64,000 bases of DNA from positions 59,883-123,882 of the forward strand of contig JAPDJP010000012.1 in NCBI GenBank assembly GCA_029259055.1, in the 5' to 3' direction. Source of the stretch: Thermoplasmatota archaeon (GTDB lineage: Archaea > Thermoplasmatota > E2 > UBA202 > JdFR-43). Below are positions 3,236 to 58,648 of this stretch, piece after piece. Below the pieces are notes generated by a model. It ran no database searches. It saw only the letters and a list, made by a program, of their open reading frames with translations, and had not been told where the DNA came from. The first letter of the stretch is position 1, and every line of letters begins with the position of its first letter. Position numbers and translations under genes: made by a program.

Positions 3236-4261
3236 ATGAGATATGTAAAGATTTATAATGAAAAAATGCAGGAATTCTTGGAAAGATTGAAAAATTATGG
3301 TAAGTTATATGCTCCAGTTAAAATATCAGATAAATTTTATGATAGAAAGGAAATTGATGATGTTAAAAAAATTTCTTTTGATTGTCTCCGCACAATAATG
3401 CCAGCAAAAAAATTTTTTATTCCTCCATATGAAGAGTTATTTGAAATTGATATCGAAAATGCTGATTATAAAGAAAAAATTGAGGAAACCGAGCCTTTTG
3501 TTTTATTTGGTTTGCATGCATGTGAAATTGTTGCACTACGTATATTAGATGGAGTATACTTAGATGAATTTCCTGATATATATTATGCAAATAGAAGAAA
3601 AGCGGGTATAATAATTGGATTGAGTTGTTTACCAGATGAATATTGTTTTTGCAATCTGACAAGAACTGACTTCGTTGACATAGGTTTTGAACTTTTCTTA
3701 CACGAATTACCAGATGGCTATTTAATTAGAGTAGGAAGTCCAAAAGGGCATAAAATAGTTGATGAAAATCCAGATTTATTTTCGGAAGTTAAAAAGGAAG
3801 ATATAGATGCTTTTAAAATGTTTGAAGAGAAGAGGCAAAAATTGTTCAAATATTATGGAAGCTTTGATAATATCAGGTATATCTTGGAATTAACAATGAA
3901 GGATAAAATATGGGATGAGGAAGCAGAAAAATGCTTAGGATGCGGAAATTGCACAATGACTTGCCCAACTTGTAGGTGCTATGATGTGCAAGATATTCCA
4001 GATATAGATGGAAAGCATGCAAAAAGAATAAGATTCTGGGACTCATGCCAGTTTAGGAGCCACGGGTTGGTGGCGGGAGGACACAATTTTAGGCCGACAA
4101 AAAAAGATAGGTTCCTAAACAGATATATATGCAAAAACGCGTATTTCTATCCTTTAGGAACTTCCTATTGTGTTGGATGCGGAAACTGTACTTATTTCTG
4201 TCCAGCAAATATTAATTTTCTGGAGAATTTAATCGAAATAAGGAGGGGAATAAATGCATGA
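3236..4261 (+). CDS. hydB: Sulfhydrogenase-type hydrogenase beta subunit (Fe-S subunit, HydB/AsrA-like)
   Basis: 341 aa with two ferredoxin-like clusters, [16 protein letters not shown] and [12 protein letters not shown]. First gene of a four-gene operon; its stop overlaps the next start. Confidence 0.75.
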
Positions 4262-8478: not shown

Positions 8479-10128
8479 TTATAAAATTAAGGAGGCCATG
8501 TATAAACCAATGCAAATCAAGAAAATACCTATTATCAATTTTATATAGGCATAACTTTTTTTCTGCATTTCTCCTATTTCTTTAGCTGAATAGCCATAAT
8601 AAAACAGGGAAAGAATGATTAACAATGGGAGTATAAACATAAAATTATATACCATTAAGTAAAGGAGAGCGGTTAGCTTTAAGGAACTTGTTCCTTGTAT
8701 TACTGCTGTGAGAGTAGGAATATAAACCTGTCCAGTACAAACAAGTTCAATAGCGGAAATTATCGCTCCAGCTGAAAAAGAAATTATCGCCAAAACAATT
8801 ATTTTTTTATCTTCGGTGATTCTCCTTATTATTCTCCCTCTTCTCTTCTTGATAAATGAAGGAAGTTGGAGAATGATTCTCTTTCCTTTTTTCGCAATAA
8901 AAAAATCAATTATACTAATAGAACCAATTATTATTGCAGCTATTCCTATCGTGGTATAAAGGTAGAGAGATGCAATTTCCCTTATCGCATCTAAAAAATG
9001 TAGTAAACCAAGCCCTATCAAAAAATAAGATATATAAACTCCCACAGCAAATGCTAAACCAACAGGAAGAATTGCTTTTTTCCTTTTAACTCTTTCCAAA
9101 TAAGCAATGAAAAATATTAGAGTTGCAAAAGCACAAGGATTTATTCCATCCAAAAGACCGCCAACTATTACTGTAAGTAAAGTCCATTCTTTAAATTCTT
9201 CTTCAATGTTTTCCTTTCCTAATTCTGGACAGCATAATCCAGTGCCAAGCCATTTCCTTATTTCGTTTTCGATTTCTTTAGCTTGGCTTACAGAATAAAA
9301 GAATTTATCTCCTATAAAAATATTAGCTGCTCTCATTCTCGTTATGTTGTATTTTTTATATAAGTAATTCAGCATTTCTGCATTTTCTGGTATTGTCTTA
9401 ACATATTTTCTTATTTCAAGAGGATATTTTTTGCTTAATGAATACAAAAAATCTTTAACTTTTTGGCATGATGGGCAACCCGGTGTATAGAAAAATAATA
9501 TGCATATTTTTTTCTCTTCATAAAAAGATGGGAAAGAAATACCAACTTTTTCATATTTCTTTGCCTCCTTTATTATAGATGAAATATTATTTACATAATA
9601 CAAATTTTCTCCAATAAAAACTGCGGGAGTCTTATCAACTCTTTTCTTTATTTCTTCATTTTCATTGATATTTACTCTATCTATTCTTATATAGCTTATA
9701 TTTTCTTCCAATGAATCCATTAATTTGCTTACATTTTCCTTATCATATACAATAAGGATACAAACTGGTTTAGGATAAATTATTTCTCCATCTTTTATAG
9801 GGATTTCAACATTAAAATTTTTAAATTCTTCCAAATCTTTCAACAATCTCTCTCCTTCGTTTTCTTCTCCTAAATAATACCATTCATTTCCAACAAAAAT
9901 GCTCGGTAAATTTTCTTCTGCATCATATGCTTTTATTAAAGATTTAAATAAGGATTCATTTCCCTCATATTTATACTTATGTATATTGACAAATGTTAAA
10001 TTTTGGAGTTTTTCCATAAAGGATGGAGAGCATTCCTTATTTTCTGAATAAAAATAGACCATATTTACTTCTGCTGCGCTAAGTTTCGCAAATAGGATTA
10101 ACAACATTACAATCAATATTTTTTTCAT
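8479..10128 (-). CDS. Thiol:disulfide interchange membrane protein: N-terminal thioredoxin/glutaredoxin-like domain(s) fused to a DsbD/CcdA-like transmembrane core
   Basis: Probable true start is MKKILIVMLLILFAKLSA (signal peptide) just after the thiC stop. CPSC redox motif, then GINPCAFATLIFFIAYL (CcdA/DsbD TM Cys) and multiple TM helices. Confidence 0.6.
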   Translation of the reverse strand: MKKILIVMLLILFAKLSAAEVNMVYFYSENKECSPSFMEKLQNLTFVNIHKYKYEGNESLFKSLIKAYDAEENLPSIFVGNEWYYLGEENEGERLLKDLEEFKNFNVEIPIKDGEIIYPKPVCILIVYDKENVSKLMDSLEENISYIRIDRVNINENEEIKKRVDKTPAVFIGENLYYVNNISSIIKEAKKYEKVGISFPSFYEEKKICILFFYTPGCPSCQKVKDFLYSLSKKYPLEIRKYVKTIPENAEMLNYLYKKYNITRMRAANIFIGDKFFYSVSQAKEIENEIRKWLGTGLCCPELGKENIEEEFKEWTLLTVIVGGLLDGINPCAFATLIFFIAYLERVKRKKAILPVGLAFAVGVYISYFLIGLGLLHFLDAIREIASLYLYTTIGIAAIIIGSISIIDFFIAKKGKRIILQLPSFIKKRRGRIIRRITEDKKIIVLAIISFSAGAIISAIELVCTGQVYIPTLTAVIQGTSSLKLTALLYLMVYNFMFILPLLIILSLFYYGYSAKEIGEMQKKSYAYIKLIIGIFLICIGLYMASLIL

Positions 10129-11399
10129 TTTCCTTCCAGATATTTTCTGACAATTTCTATTGCACACAACTCACCACACATTGAACATGTTGAGGATTGT
10201 GTCGGTCTTCTTTTTCTATATTCAATAGCTTTTTTGGCATCAATAGCAAGTTCAAACATTTTCTTCCAGTTAAGATTTGCTCTCGCTTCTGAAAATTCTT
10301 TGTCTAATTCCAAATCAATGCCTCTCGCAATGTTTGCAGCATGGGCAGCTATTTTTGTAACAATTACTCCTTCCCTTACATCTTCAACATTTGGTAATGC
10401 AAGATGTTCTGCAGGAGTTACATAGCAAAGAAAATCAGCTCCATAATAACCAGCTAAAGCCCCTCCAATCCCCCCAACAATATGATCATAACCAGGAGCT
10501 ATATCTGTCACAAGGGGACCTAATACAAAATAAGGAGCTTCTCTCGTAACTTTTTTCATTATTCGAATGTTAGCCTCTATATCATTTAATGGCATATGCC
10601 CCGGCCCCTCCACCATGGTTTGGACTCCTTTTTCTCTCGCTTTTTCAACCAACTCCCCAACAATCAATAATTCTTGGAATTTTGCTCGGTCATTTGAATC
10701 ATTTATCGCTCCGCTCCTCATACCATCTCCCAAACTTAAAGTTAAATCATATTCTTTTGCTATCTCCAATAAATAATCAAAGTCTTTGTATAAAGGATTT
10801 TCTTCCTCATGATAAAGAATCCAAGCAATATGGAAAGCCCCTCCTCTCGAAACCATTGGTATAAGCCTTTTTTGTTTTTTTAATCTTTCAACGCTTGTTT
10901 TTGTCACTCCAACGTGAGCAACGGCGAAATCGACACCTTGTTTAGCTTGCTTTTCAAAGGAATTAAACATATCATCGGCGGTCATTTCTACAATTGCGCC
11001 TTTTTTTCTCATTGCTTCTATACCAGCTTGATAAATTGGGACTGTTCCAAAAGGAACATTTACAACTTTTAACAATTCAAGTCTTATTTTATCTAAATCT
11101 CCCCCAGTTGATAAGTCCATAACCGCATCAGCCCCTGCTTCTATTGCTGCCTTTGCTTTTTCAACTTCCTCCTCAATATTGCAGTAATCCATAGAAGTGC
11201 CAATATTTGCATTTACTTTTACTCTTAATCCTTTTCCTATTCCTAAAGGAGAAGGAGAATGGATCGGATTATATGGTATAATTATTTTTCCTTCTGCAAC
11301 CCTTCTCCTAATAATTTCCGCATCAATTTTTTCAGCTTCTGCAACTTTTTTAATCTCTTCTGTTATTATTCCTCTTTTTGCCTCTTCCATTAAAGTCAT
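10125..11399 (-). CDS. thiC: Phosphomethylpyrimidine synthase ThiC
   Basis: 424 aa with strong ThiC family similarity across the protein. C-terminal CSMCGELCAIE Fe-S motif. Confidence 0.9.
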   Translation of the reverse strand: MTLMEEAKRGIITEEIKKVAEAEKIDAEIIRRRVAEGKIIIPYNPIHSPSPLGIGKGLRVKVNANIGTSMDYCNIEEEVEKAKAAIEAGADAVMDLSTGGDLDKIRLELLKVVNVPFGTVPIYQAGIEAMRKKGAIVEMTADDMFNSFEKQAKQGVDFAVAHVGVTKTSVERLKKQKRLIPMVSRGGAFHIAWILYHEEENPLYKDFDYLLEIAKEYDLTLSLGDGMRSGAINDSNDRAKFQELLIVGELVEKAREKGVQTMVEGPGHMPLNDIEANIRIMKKVTREAPYFVLGPLVTDIAPGYDHIVGGIGGALAGYYGADFLCYVTPAEHLALPNVEDVREGVIVTKIAAHAANIARGIDLELDKEFSEARANLNWKKMFELAIDAKKAIEYRKRRPTQSSTCSMCGELCAIEIVRKYLEGK

Positions 11400-11417: not shown

Positions 11418-12281
11418 TCACATATTAAATTTTCTAAGCCTATACGCCATTAATAAATAAACAACAATATCTCTCTTATACTTTCCAAATTTTTTAACAA
11501 ATTCTTTTATTACTGTTGGAGGTTGTAACTCATCAAAATAAAAATATGAAATAGCTTTTCTTACTCCTAAATCATCAGTAGGGATTATATTTAGGCCTAT
11601 TGAAGCAGCCATTACAAGCTCTGCAGTCCATTTTCCTATTCCTTTAAATGAGGTTAGTTCATTGAATATTTCTTCTGGTTTTTTATTCCTCAATTTTTCG
11701 GGATCGAAACCATTCAATACTTCTTGCGAAAAATTCTTTATATATTCTGCCTTTCTATAACTCAATCCGCACTTTCTTAATTCTTCTATTTTTGCGCTTG
11801 CAAGTTTATGTGGCAATGGAAAATCATAAACAAGTTCGTTCATATATTTTGTTTTCATTCCATACTTTTTTACAATATTGGATATGATATGGTTTGCAAT
11901 TTTAAGAGATATTTGTTGTTGTACTATAGCCTTTATTATTCCTTCATAAACACTAATAGACATTAAACCTGCTCTTCCAAATCCATGTAATTCTCTTTTT
12001 ATTTTTCTTAATATGCTATCTTTTTCCATAAAATCATATAAATTTTTGGGATTTTTTATTCCGTGATATTTAAAAACCAAATTTTCTATCTCTTTTGTTT
12101 TCTTAGGGGAATAAAAATATAGTAAATTATCTTTCCCCTCAACAATTACTGGGATTCCATTTAACATTCTCATCCATTTATTTCCTTTGATTATACATGG
12201 AGTTGGCTGATTAGGCAAAATAGAAAATTTTAGTTTAAGTTGCCATTTAAAAGGAAAATTCAATTTAATTTTCCATTTCAT
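11418..12281 (-). CDS. HhH-GPD DNA glycosylase (AlkA/Ogg-like: 3-methyladenine or 8-oxoG glycosylase)
   Basis: 287 aa. Helix-hairpin-helix GPD region ...FKGIGKWTAELVMAASIGLNIIPTDDLGVRKA. Confidence 0.65.
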   Translation of the reverse strand: MKWKIKLNFPFKWQLKLKFSILPNQPTPCIIKGNKWMRMLNGIPVIVEGKDNLLYFYSPKKTKEIENLVFKYHGIKNPKNLYDFMEKDSILRKIKRELHGFGRAGLMSISVYEGIIKAIVQQQISLKIANHIISNIVKKYGMKTKYMNELVYDFPLPHKLASAKIEELRKCGLSYRKAEYIKNFSQEVLNGFDPEKLRNKKPEEIFNELTSFKGIGKWTAELVMAASIGLNIIPTDDLGVRKAISYFYFDELQPPTVIKEFVKKFGKYKRDIVVYLLMAYRLRKFNM

Positions 12282-13158
12282 TTTTTCTTTTAGTAGCTAA
12301 AATATGCGCCTGTCTTATTGGTTCAGGAGTGCTATATTTCATAAAATTTTTTGTTATTTGATAAGCTGTTTCAATGCTAATTTTATTTCCAGGGGAAACA
12401 AAAATTTTTCCCAATTTCCTTCCTACTTTTCTTCCATTTATATAAACATATCCATCTCTTATTTTTCCATACAATAATTTTTTGGCTATCCCAATTGTTA
12501 CCATATCATTAATTACTCCAAAATGACAAGCGATTCCAAAAAAACGAGGATGTAACAATCCGTTTCCATCTATCATAACTATACTTGGATTTTCATTTCT
12601 TATAAGTTCATTCAAAATGGGCAACTCTCTATATGCTAAATAAGTTGGAATATATGGAAATTCAATTTTTTTCTCAATAATTTTTTGTTTAATTATATCT
12701 CCTTTTAAATTAAATTCAACATATGCACCATATGCTACATTTTTACCATAAGCAACATCCATACCAGCAATACTATTCAATTCAAAATCATCATTTAATG
12801 AGATTTTCTTTTTTAGATTTTCTTGCTCTTTTCTCAGTTTTTTTAAAGGATAATCCGTGATAAAATCATTAAATAAAAATTTTTTTAAATCAATTTTACC
12901 CTTTATTATTTCAACTCCGTCTCTTTTTAGTAATTCTATTTTCTTTTCTACACCATGAGCATATCCTCCTATACTGCCATCACTTTTCACAACCCTATAA
13001 CATGGAACATCCTTATATGGATTCTCATTTAGCATTTTTCCAACTGCTCTCGAAGCTATTATATCTCCCAAAGCCAATGCTATATGTCCATAAGTAGATA
13101 CTTTTCCTTTTGGAATTTGCTTCACCAACTCGTAGGTTTTTTTGTATAGGTTTATCAT
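12265..13158 (-). CDS. Fusion protein: N-terminal O6-alkylguanine-DNA alkyltransferase (MGMT/Ogt) domain plus C-terminal endonuclease V (Nfi) domain
   Basis: The track ORF begins at TTG (13185); the first ATG gives MINLYKK... at 13158. The N-terminal ~90 aa carry the PCYRVV motif (PCHRVV-type alkyl-acceptor Cys). The remainder (DVAYGK...YIPTYLAYRE...IVMIDGNGLLHPRFFGIACHFG...) matches EndoV. Confidence 0.75.
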   Translation of the reverse strand: MINLYKKTYELVKQIPKGKVSTYGHIALALGDIIASRAVGKMLNENPYKDVPCYRVVKSDGSIGGYAHGVEKKIELLKRDGVEIIKGKIDLKKFLFNDFITDYPLKKLRKEQENLKKKISLNDDFELNSIAGMDVAYGKNVAYGAYVEFNLKGDIIKQKIIEKKIEFPYIPTYLAYRELPILNELIRNENPSIVMIDGNGLLHPRFFGIACHFGVINDMVTIGIAKKLLYGKIRDGYVYINGRKVGRKLGKIFVSPGNKISIETAYQITKNFMKYSTPEPIRQAHILATKRKNEMEN

Positions 13159-13170
13159 GTTGCTCTTGTG

Positions 13171-13222
13171 CCTCCGCCTCGTCAAGGCGATTCATTATTC
13201 CTCGCCTCTCCGCAGGCGGAGG
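13171..13222. promoter_or_regulatory. GC-rich nested inverted repeat (9-bp perfect stem CCTCCGCCT / AGGCGGAGG, inner AGGCGA / TCGCCT) in a divergent promoter region
   Basis: Direct reading shows cctccgcct at 13171-13179 and aggcggagg at 13214-13222. It is an isolated GC island in AT-rich intergenic DNA between the ogt-nfi operon start and dnaG. Confidence 0.4.
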
Positions 13223-13331
13223 CTAATTTTTAAATACAAACTCAAATATAATTTTTCTTTTATGATGAATATAACCGTGATAATGATTACAAAAAGTTTT
13301 AATAATAGTTGGCATTAAAGCTTGTCAGGAG

Positions 13332-14483
<1,152 letters not shown>

Positions 14484-57293: not shown

Positions 57294-57830
57294 TTATTCT
57301 AGGGTAGCATGCCTTCTTTTCATACTTTCCTCGCTTTCTCCTTTTTTAGCCATTAATTCTGCTATTAAGCCATCTAAAAAAATCCAAGCAGATGCTTCAA
57401 ATAATGTTCCTAAAGGAGCTAAATCAGCTTTTTTATCTCTTGGCTTTAAAATAACAACCAAATCTGCAAATCTTGCAATGTGGGAATCTGGATTTGCTGT
57501 TATTGATATTATCTTTGCTCCTAATCGACGGGCAATTTCTGCCGTCATTGCAACAGGTATTGTTTCTCCTGAGCCTGAAATTAAAACAACCAGATCTCCT
57601 TTTCTTACTGGCTTTGTTATTGTTTCACCAATAACAAAAGTGGGAAAACCTAAATGAACCAATCTTATTGCAAAAGCTTTTCCAACTAATCCGCTTCTAC
57701 CAGCTCCATAAACAAATATATTTTTTGCTTTGAAAAAATAATCTACAATTTCTTCTATCTTCTCTTTTTCAATTTGGAGAATCTGTTTGATTTCTTTCCA
57801 TATATAATCAATAGCTTCTTCAAACTTCAT
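57294..57830 (-). CDS. SIS-domain sugar-phosphate isomerase (6-phospho-3-hexuloisomerase-like)
   Basis: 178 aa. FVYGAGRSGLVGKAFAIRL...LISGSGET is the SIS signature. Confidence 0.65.
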   Translation of the reverse strand: MKFEEAIDYIWKEIKQILQIEKEKIEEIVDYFFKAKNIFVYGAGRSGLVGKAFAIRLVHLGFPTFVIGETITKPVRKGDLVVLISGSGETIPVAMTAEIARRLGAKIISITANPDSHIARFADLVVILKPRDKKADLAPLGTLFEASAWIFLDGLIAELMAKKGESEESMKRRHATLE

Positions 57831-58648
57831 TTCATCATTTCCATTGCTCTATCAAGCAATATTTGTGCATATACAGCATCATGCTCAACAACTGGTGACT
57901 CGGATATTATTGTAACATCATAGTCATTTTCGAGTATGCATTCCATCAATTTTATGACAGGTATATCTCCTTTTTTTATTGGAACGTGATATAATTCTCC
58001 GCTACTATCATATTTTACTCCTGTCAAATGAATTAAATAATGATTCAGATTTAAATCTTTTAAGGCATCAAAAATTTTTTGAAAATCTTCCTTTTCCTTT
58101 AAACATCCATTACATCTCGCATGTATATGTCCAATATCTATAACTGGGACAGTTCCTCTCACTCTTTTGCATACTTCAATAATTTCTTCCAAGCTACCAA
58201 AGACTTCTTTTTTTCCCATGGTTTCTAAGCCAATAGGAACTTCGATTCCCCTTTTTTTAACTCTATCTCTAATAGCCCTCAAGTTTTTGACAATTCTTTT
58301 CATTGTTTCTTTCTTTGATAAATTGCCATAAAATCCTAAATGCGTTGTCATTATACGAGCTCCCATTAGATGAGCAAGATATAGGGATTTTTCTATTTTT
58401 TCTCTACTCATTTTAACATTTCTTTTATCTCCTGCCAAATTTATATAATAGGGAGCATGAACATATATTGCTATATCACACTTTTTTGCAACTCTTTTTA
58501 TTTCCTTAGCTTCTTCATTACTTATAAAACCTCTAGCAAATCTTATTTCCATTGCAGATAGACCCAAACATCTCGTATATATGATTCCATCTATATTTGT
58601 TCTTTCTTTGCATGATAATGGTATGCCTGCGGGCCCAATTCTTATCAC
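57827..58648 (-). CDS. nfo: Endonuclease IV (Nfo, AP endonuclease family 2 TIM barrel)
   Basis: 273 aa. YVHAPYYINLAG, IDIGHIHARCNG and IHL...GDIP segments parallel the Nfo metal-binding regions. Confidence 0.7.
   Translation of the reverse strand: MIRIGPAGIPLSCKERTNIDGIIYTRCLGLSAMEIRFARGFISNEEAKEIKRVAKKCDIAIYVHAPYYINLAGDKRNVKMSREKIEKSLYLAHLMGARIMTTHLGFYGNLSKKETMKRIVKNLRAIRDRVKKRGIEVPIGLETMGKKEVFGSLEEIIEVCKRVRGTVPVIDIGHIHARCNGCLKEKEDFQKIFDALKDLNLNHYLIHLTGVKYDSSGELYHVPIKKGDIPVIKLMECILENDYDVTIISESPVVEHDAVYAQILLDRAMEMMK

Follow-up and report, generated by a model that had tools for sequence, protein, structure and literature searches.

The 64,000-nt window analysed here is a stretch of contig JAPDJP010000012.1 from a Thermoplasmatota archaeon (assembly GCA_029259055.1) with a GC content of about 31%. 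On its minus strand it encodes a protein in which the catalytic domain of an O6-alkylguanine-DNA alkyltransferase (AGT) is joined to a complete endonuclease V (EndoV), and the gene runs into that of an AlkA-type DNA glycosylase. An earlier note on this DNA had described a rare fusion gene within a repair operon. The analysis established which domains are present, how well catalytic residues are conserved, which folds are predicted, how large the family is and how the gene neighbourhood is distributed, and from these results we infer the enzymatic activities and co-expression discussed below. Positions refer to the window throughout. The central features are:

12265..13158, minus strand: AGT-EndoV fusion gene, an open reading frame (ORF) with an ATG start, encoding 297 aa with two Pfam domains
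12913..13149, minus strand: AGT C-terminal (catalytic and DNA-binding) domain, aa 4-82, PF01035
12994..13005, minus strand: active-site motif P52-C53-Y54-R55 (canonically PCHR), identified from the sequence and a motif census of homologues
12304..12819, minus strand: EndoV domain, aa 114-285, PF04493
12265..12281, minus strand: 17-nt overlap of the fusion gene and the AlkA-like gene, ATGAAATGGAAAATTAA, read in the sequence
11418..12281, minus strand: gene of an AfAlkA-type 3-methyladenine DNA glycosylase II, 287 aa, identified by Pfam and by phmmer against PDB

Domains, fold and integrity of the fusion protein

The two halves of the protein matched the Pfam families DNA_binding_1 (PF01035, aa 4-82, E 2.8e-25) and Endonuclease_5 (PF04493, aa 114-285, E 3.5e-46). 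Among the NCBIfam models, TIGR00589 (ogt) passed its cut-off with 64.8 versus 46.4 bits. EndoV equivalogs were the best models for the C-terminal part and stayed below their stand-alone cut-offs (135 versus 230 bits), as one would expect of an archaeal fusion form that has diverged. The AGT N-terminal domain (PF02870) is absent, and the protein begins at the catalytic domain. Among PDB sequences, the N-terminal part matched AGTs of archaea, bacteria and humans as well as alkyltransferase-like proteins (ATLs).

Alignment with T. maritima EndoV (2w35) assigned the EndoV residues D134 (D43), E178 (E89), D197 (D110), K226 (K139) and H285 (H214), together with the PYIP wedge at 168-171; D134, E178 and K226 were invariant in 131 sequences. 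With 131 homologues as input, AlphaFold2 gave a model that had a predicted local distance difference test (pLDDT) of 97.3 and a predicted TM-score (pTM) of 0.91 and was confident through the linker. In Foldseek comparisons with PDB, the EndoV part matched 6ozg/6ozf with a target-normalised TM-score (TMt) of about 0.80 and a root mean square deviation (rmsd) of 2.2. Matches of the AGT part to AGTs and ATLs had rmsd values of 1.7-2.5 overall and included S. solfataricus OGT (SsOGT; 41% identity, rmsd 2.1), human AGT (rmsd 1.8) and S. pombe Atl1 (TMt 0.78), the S. pombe and Vibrio ATLs being among the best at TMt 0.78-0.81. No chain covering both domains was found among the 50 Foldseek PDB matches listed. 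The earlier note had allowed that the N-terminal part might not have an AGT fold. Pfam, NCBIfam and Foldseek all identified it as AGT: the N-terminal domain is an AGT catalytic domain, and the claim of its fusion to a full EndoV at 12265..13158 is upheld by both Pfam families and by the matching folds.

An assembly or frameshift artefact joining two separate genes was another explanation to be considered, and its probability is practically nil. The identical 297-aa ORF was present on contigs of six independent assemblies (two from ENA, four from Logan runs), which excludes such an artefact. In addition, hundreds of homologues share the architecture, both Pfam domains occurring in 120 of the 120 best database homologues, and with it a linker whose residues F96, F99, P104, L105 and Q112 are at least 90% conserved or invariant among the 131 homologues; the model, too, is confident across the linker. 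Nothing in support of the artefact reading was found. An in-frame TTG at 13185 could lengthen the ORF; the N-termini of homologues (MNLY/MDLY) fit the ATG at 13158 instead.

Relation to Ferroplasma AGTendoV and spread of the family

The Ferroplasma acidarmanus protein AGTendoV was reportedly characterised by Kanugula, Pauly, Moschel and Pegg in PNAS in 2005. A 2023 review credits it with the repair of O6-alkylguanine and with activity on deamination products (PMC10779285; see also PMC3489907). According to the same review, an Asp replaces the activating Glu in AGTendoV, one of the two AGT variants of F. acidarmanus is such a fusion, and ATL-EndoV fusions are mentioned in archaea (PMC10779285). 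The F. acidarmanus fusion protein P0251 (AGO61381.1, WP_009887435.1, S0AR14; 303 aa) reads GIPCYKVVH at the acceptor site and RKDG at the Glu172 position, and the window protein is 45% identical to it in an alignment of 289 aa that runs the whole length. We take P0251 to be the characterised AGTendoV: it is the F. acidarmanus protein retrieved with this architecture, the review counts such a fusion among the two AGT variants of the species, and the Asp detail agrees with the review. The precedent in Ferroplasma, to which the earlier note had pointed, holds. A second AGT motif was sought within the window and not found.

In both proteins a conserved linker connects the catalytic half of an AGT, which comes without the AGT N-terminal domain, to a full EndoV. 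They are of similar length (297 versus 303 aa), carry Tyr in place of the His of PCHR and Asp in place of Glu172, and conserve all EndoV catalytic positions. They differ in the acceptor motif (PCYR here, PCYK in Ferroplasma) and after the third catalytic acid (DGNG here, DANG in Ferroplasma). The window gene comes from another Thermoplasmatota lineage (31% GC), and the nearest named relatives are metagenome-assembled genomes of uncultured Thermoplasmata and Thermoplasmatales. Furthermore, the window gene overlaps an alkA gene. Of the two proteins, that of the window has the more canonical motif, since the Ferroplasma protein has Lys for Arg besides Tyr for His.

With canonical AGTs (human MGMT, E. 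coli Ogt and Ada-C, S. solfataricus OGT, M. jannaschii MGMT) the window protein shares the C-terminal fold with its helix-turn-helix, the equivalents of Tyr114, Arg128 and Asn137, the acceptor Cys and Arg147, but it lacks their N-terminal domain, has Tyr for His146 and Asp for Glu172, and carries a fused nuclease. Like the ATLs (S. pombe Atl1, E. coli YbaZ, Vibrio ATL), which gave the best TMt values, it has a single AGT C-terminal fold of about 100 aa, and Cys-less relatives occur inside its own fusion family. In the ATLs, however, the acceptor Cys is replaced by Trp, Ala or other residues, whereas the window protein retains it. With EndoV of E. coli (Nfi) and T. maritima (TM1865), the window protein has in common the fold, the PYIP wedge and the D/E/D/K/H catalytic residues; its N-terminal AGT domain sets it apart from them.

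The family proved to be far larger than the earlier note had assumed when it called such fusions rare and attributed them to Ferroplasma and relatives. A scan of GTDB, with one genome per species, detected at least 577 loci encoding a relative. The best 80 of these belong to Thermoplasmatota (Thermoplasmata, DHVE2/Aciduliprofundum, Methanomassiliicoccales and Thermoplasmataceae), as do most members of the family. When 1.84 billion representatives of clusters at 50% identity were searched with a profile, 1265 matched at E <= 1e-30, and both domains were present in 144 of the 150 best representatives. The fusion is thus not rare. Three kinds of AGT module occur in it: canonical PCHR, Cys with Tyr or Phe, and Cys-less ATL-like forms (PVHR, PLHR, PIHR, PAHR, PWHR, PSYR and others), the last in about 45 of the 144 representatives.

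A few relatives are from bacterial metagenome-assembled genomes, namely of Bipolaricaulota/Acetothermia, Fraserbacteria and one assigned to Campylobacterales, which suggests either inter-domain transfer or contaminated genome bins. The bacterial fusions (L082, L084, L085 and L086 from Bipolaricaulota/Acetothermia and Fraserbacteria; L063 and L066) mostly carry Ser for the acceptor Cys (PSYR, PSHR, ASHR) and are thus ATL-like. The public names shown for family members were 'endonuclease V', 'deoxyribonuclease V' and 'methylated-DNA--[protein]-cysteine S-methyltransferase'. None of those shown gives both activities, and such single-activity names hide the bifunctional architecture.

Altogether, the window harbours a real fusion gene that is a member of the already known AGTendoV family, in which architecture, bifunctionality and the Tyr-for-His change are already represented by the Ferroplasma protein. 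Its discovery value is accordingly small. Three by-products are modestly useful: the breadth of a family that spans PCHR, Tyr/Phe and many Cys-less ATL-like members, some of them bacterial; the joint variation at two active-site positions described below; and the observation that annotation naming one activity conceals the second.

The alkyltransferase active site

Human AGT equivalents were assigned by counting residues from the acceptor Cys. On this count, human Y114 corresponds to Y23, the arginine finger R128 to R37, the hinge residue N137 to N46, P144-C145-H146-R147 to P52-C53-Y54-R55 (nt 13005..12994), and E172 to D80, just past the Pfam boundary. Y23, R37, N46, P52 and C53 are each at least 90% conserved among the 131 homologues. 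The motif VPCYRVV keeps the acceptor Cys and has Tyr at the canonical His site. The relay residues His146 and Glu172 (Glu-His-water-Cys) are not kept, their places being taken by Tyr54 and Asp80. Because the same deviation from the relay is found in the F. acidarmanus fusion protein, it does not exclude activity. Literature searches on AGTendoV, on His146 mutants and on the PCYK, PCYR and PCFK motifs gave either nothing beyond the review cited above or nothing relevant.

The motif census showed how common the substitution is. The 120 closest homologues comprised PCYR (43), PCFK (28), PCHR (21), PCYK (18) and PCFR (5) besides a few Cys-less forms. Among 80 GTDB species, PCHR was found in 35, PCYR in about 12, PCFK in 12 and PCYK in 11, the others including Cys-less forms. 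The change from His to Tyr reported in the earlier note is therefore real and a clade-wide trait; its implied oddity did not hold up, Tyr and Phe being common at this site and F. acidarmanus itself having PCYK. The acceptor Cys is present in all 43 PCYR proteins of the 120 closest homologues and in 250 of the about 258 members bearing Tyr or Phe (about 97%).

Sites 146 and 172 tend to covary. Among the close relatives sampled, PCHR was accompanied by Glu at the 172 site in 53 of 53 cases and PC[YF][RK] by Asp in 235 of 250, and Cys-less forms paired with Glu. In the less biased sample of cluster representatives, PC[YF][RK] occurred with Asp in 19 cases and with Glu in 12. An absolute covariation of the two sites was therefore downgraded to a tendency. 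These counts carry no phylogenetic correction, and clustering by the unweighted pair group method with arithmetic mean (UPGMA) on identity is too coarse for a reliable count of independent His-to-Tyr changes. The family offers a natural mutant series for thiolate activation in AGTs.

The loss of the relay His raises the question whether the AGT domain is an inactive, ATL-like lesion sensor, one that would flip out O6-alkylguanine on binding, transfer nothing, and pass the lesion on to the fused EndoV or to excision repair. Besides the replacement of His146 by Tyr, the missing N-terminal domain is a feature of ATLs, the best fold matches include the S. pombe and Vibrio proteins, the same family has many Cys-less members, and archaeal ATL-EndoV fusions have been mentioned (PMC10779285). 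On the other hand, Cys53 is retained throughout the PCYR clade and in nearly all Tyr/Phe members and is lost in the true ATL-type members. AGTendoV is reported to transfer alkyl groups (PMC10779285), and the F. acidarmanus fusion has Tyr at the same site. Moreover, Asp at the Glu172 site goes with Cys and Tyr/Phe in most close relatives. The combination of Cys, Tyr/Phe and Asp looks like a maintained active site rather than decay, and we consider a sensor without transferase activity improbable.

We regard it as likely, judging from domain content and conserved residues, that the window protein is a bifunctional DNA repair enzyme of the AGTendoV type. In such an enzyme, the AGT module would bind the minor groove through its helix-turn-helix, and the alkylated base, O6-alkylguanine, would be flipped out with the help of Arg37, Tyr23 and N46. 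The alkyl group would then be passed irreversibly to Cys53 in a single-turnover suicide reaction, the Asp80/Tyr54 arrangement presumably standing in for the Glu-His-water relay, as it would in the Ferroplasma enzyme. A complete Mg2+-dependent EndoV that nicks 3' of deoxyinosine and related lesions is predicted for the C-terminal ~200 residues. Several points weigh against this interpretation: PCHR has lost its canonical relay His; identity to the characterised enzyme is no higher than 45%, and that enzyme carries Lys at the site of Arg in the window protein; the equation of P0251 with the assayed protein draws on the three points given above; and co-transcription with the alkA gene is deduced solely from an overlap. 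In relatives, the fusion gene commonly overlaps unrelated downstream genes by 4-8 nt.

A more far-reaching proposal is that the Cys-Tyr/Phe-Asp site constitutes a distinct, co-adapted catalytic solution that replaces Cys-His-Glu in much of the Thermoplasmatota AGT-EndoV family and that, with a translationally coupled AlkA glycosylase, forms a compact alkylation-repair module in this lineage. We hold this to be unlikely. Such a site may have arisen more than once, and its substrate range or kinetics could be altered.

The glycosylase gene, its junction and the surroundings

The product of the downstream gene combines an AfAlkA-like N-terminal domain resembling TATA-box-binding protein (TBP-like; PF22394) with an HhH-GPD domain (PF00730, E 1.6e-16). 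Its aa 3-280 align in PDB with aa 2-285 of A. fulgidus AlkA (AfAlkA; 2JHJ/2JHN, E 1.2e-64), in agreement with the earlier note, which had recognised an HhH-GPD glycosylase of AlkA type. The catalytic Asp240 of AfAlkA aligns to D237 (PTDD237LG, nt 11573..11571). As in AfAlkA, the HhH motif (GIGKW218TA) contains Trp, here at the site of the Lys nucleophile of bifunctional glycosylases, so that the enzyme should be monofunctional. In contrast to AfAlkA, which has Phe at positions 133 and 282, it has Leu126 and Leu277 (positions counted on the alignment). We take these two Phe residues to line the base-binding pocket of AfAlkA; if they do, the substrate range may differ from that of AfAlkA. AfAlkA excises 1-methyladenine and 3-methylcytosine besides the classical AlkA substrates (PMC4437013; PMC8307549). 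The expected substrates of the window enzyme are 3-methyladenine and 7-methylguanine, probably joined by 1-methyladenine and 3-methylcytosine.

The fusion gene ends with TAA at 12267..12265 and the AlkA-like gene starts with ATG at 12281..12279 in a different frame. The 17-nt overlap claimed earlier is thus confirmed at 12265..12281; with such an overlap the two genes are likely to be co-transcribed and translationally coupled. The genes around the pair are:

10125..11399, minus strand: thiC, starting 18 nt after the stop codon of the AlkA-like gene
8479..10167, minus strand: predicted membrane protein of 549-562 aa, overlapping the end of thiC
13332..14483, divergent from the fusion gene: archaeal-type Toprim (DnaG-like) protein

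Past the AlkA-like gene, the co-directional run comprises thiC, the membrane protein gene, a ferredoxin gene and sfsA, and thiC is probably co-transcribed with the repair genes. Within the window, neither a thiamine pyrophosphate (TPP) riboswitch nor another Rfam family near thiC and the operon was detected at gathering score. The membrane protein has weak glutaredoxin-like Pfam matches (E 6e-5); the precomputed gene calls assign it to no family.

Conservation of the pairing was assessed in 80 other species. An HhH-GPD gene adjoins the fusion gene in one of them, at locus L009 (Thermoplasmata AUK247), and is absent from this position in the other 79. L009 has the same 17-nt overlap (3884..3900), with proteins 72% (fusion) and 63% (AlkA) identical to those of the window. 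Locus L008 follows L009 collinearly, with 84% nt identity, as far as the stop codon of the fusion gene (about position 3897 in both), where homology ends exactly; it lacks alkA and continues into opposite-strand genes. The synteny breakpoint is therefore the gene junction itself. The same-strand downstream neighbours in other species, 32 in all, encode proteins with a histone-deacetylase domain (8), ketopantoate reductases (8), AsnC/HTH regulators (4), HD proteins (3), the single HhH-GPD protein and assorted others.

This distribution bears on whether the pair is a functional repair operon at all, or whether adjacency and overlap are incidental to gene packing in a compact genome. For incidental packing speak the single other species with the pairing, the collinear L008 without alkA, the unrelated downstream genes of other lineages, many of which overlap the fusion gene by 4-8 nt, and the continuation of the run into thiC after 18 nt and then into the membrane protein gene that overlaps thiC. 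Against it, alkylated or deaminated bases are the expected substrates of both gene products, and the identical overlap in L009 has been kept despite the divergence of both proteins, which suggests that the junction has persisted over some period. We consider incidental packing a serious possibility that falls somewhat short of probable. In either case the dedicated repair operon of the earlier note was not borne out, given the rarity of an AlkA neighbour and a run that goes on into thiC after 18 nt; the fusion-alkA pair is best described as a recent, lineage-specific juxtaposition of repair genes rather than a conserved repair operon.

The deacetylase-domain and ketopantoate reductase (PanE/ApbA) families, with eight loci each, are recurrent downstream of the fusion gene. 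Downstream ORFs likewise recur in two size classes of about 345 aa and about 295-300 aa (L045, L047, L052, L056, L059, L064, L067, L075 and L060, L061, L068, L073, L074, L076, L077, L080), most of which overlap the fusion gene by 4-8 nt; we infer that the two classes are these two families.

A distant ORF had also been taken as a sign of heavy investment in repair, having been read as endonuclease IV at 57.8 kb:

57827..58648, minus strand: ORF with an AP_endonuc_2 TIM barrel (Pfam E 5.6e-29)

Among NCBIfam models it matched those of deoxyribonuclease IV best, with scores far below the cut-offs (NF002196, 57.9 versus 333; TIGR00587 nfo, 44.5 versus 129.65), and a weak match to the model of the cobamide-remodelling CbiR was seen as well. 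The ORF lies 45 kb from the fusion locus and says nothing about it; as evidence of a heavy repair investment it is not supported.

The 173 intergenic nt that separate the fusion gene from the divergent dnaG-like gene contain a GC-rich hairpin (13167..13223, minus strand) that stands out in a genome of 31% GC. A search for its conservation upstream of the fusion gene in relatives found none. The stem-loop proper (13170..13223) has a 9-bp lower stem, GCCUCCGCC/GGCGGAGGC, an internal loop with the strands UGCGGAGA and UUGACGA, an upper stem GGCGA/UCGCC and the loop AAUAAUGAA, and its predicted free energy is -38.9 kcal/mol (z -7.7). An ACA follows directly (13169..13167), 9 nt before the fusion ATG, and a TATA-like element, TTATATTT (13251..13244), precedes the hairpin stem by about 26 nt. 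The hairpin gave a weak, sub-threshold Rfam match to the archaeal H/ACA small RNA (sRNA) HgcG/Pab40 (26.7 versus 77 bits, E 1e-4), and it is a candidate for an H/ACA guide sRNA or for a structured 5' leader.

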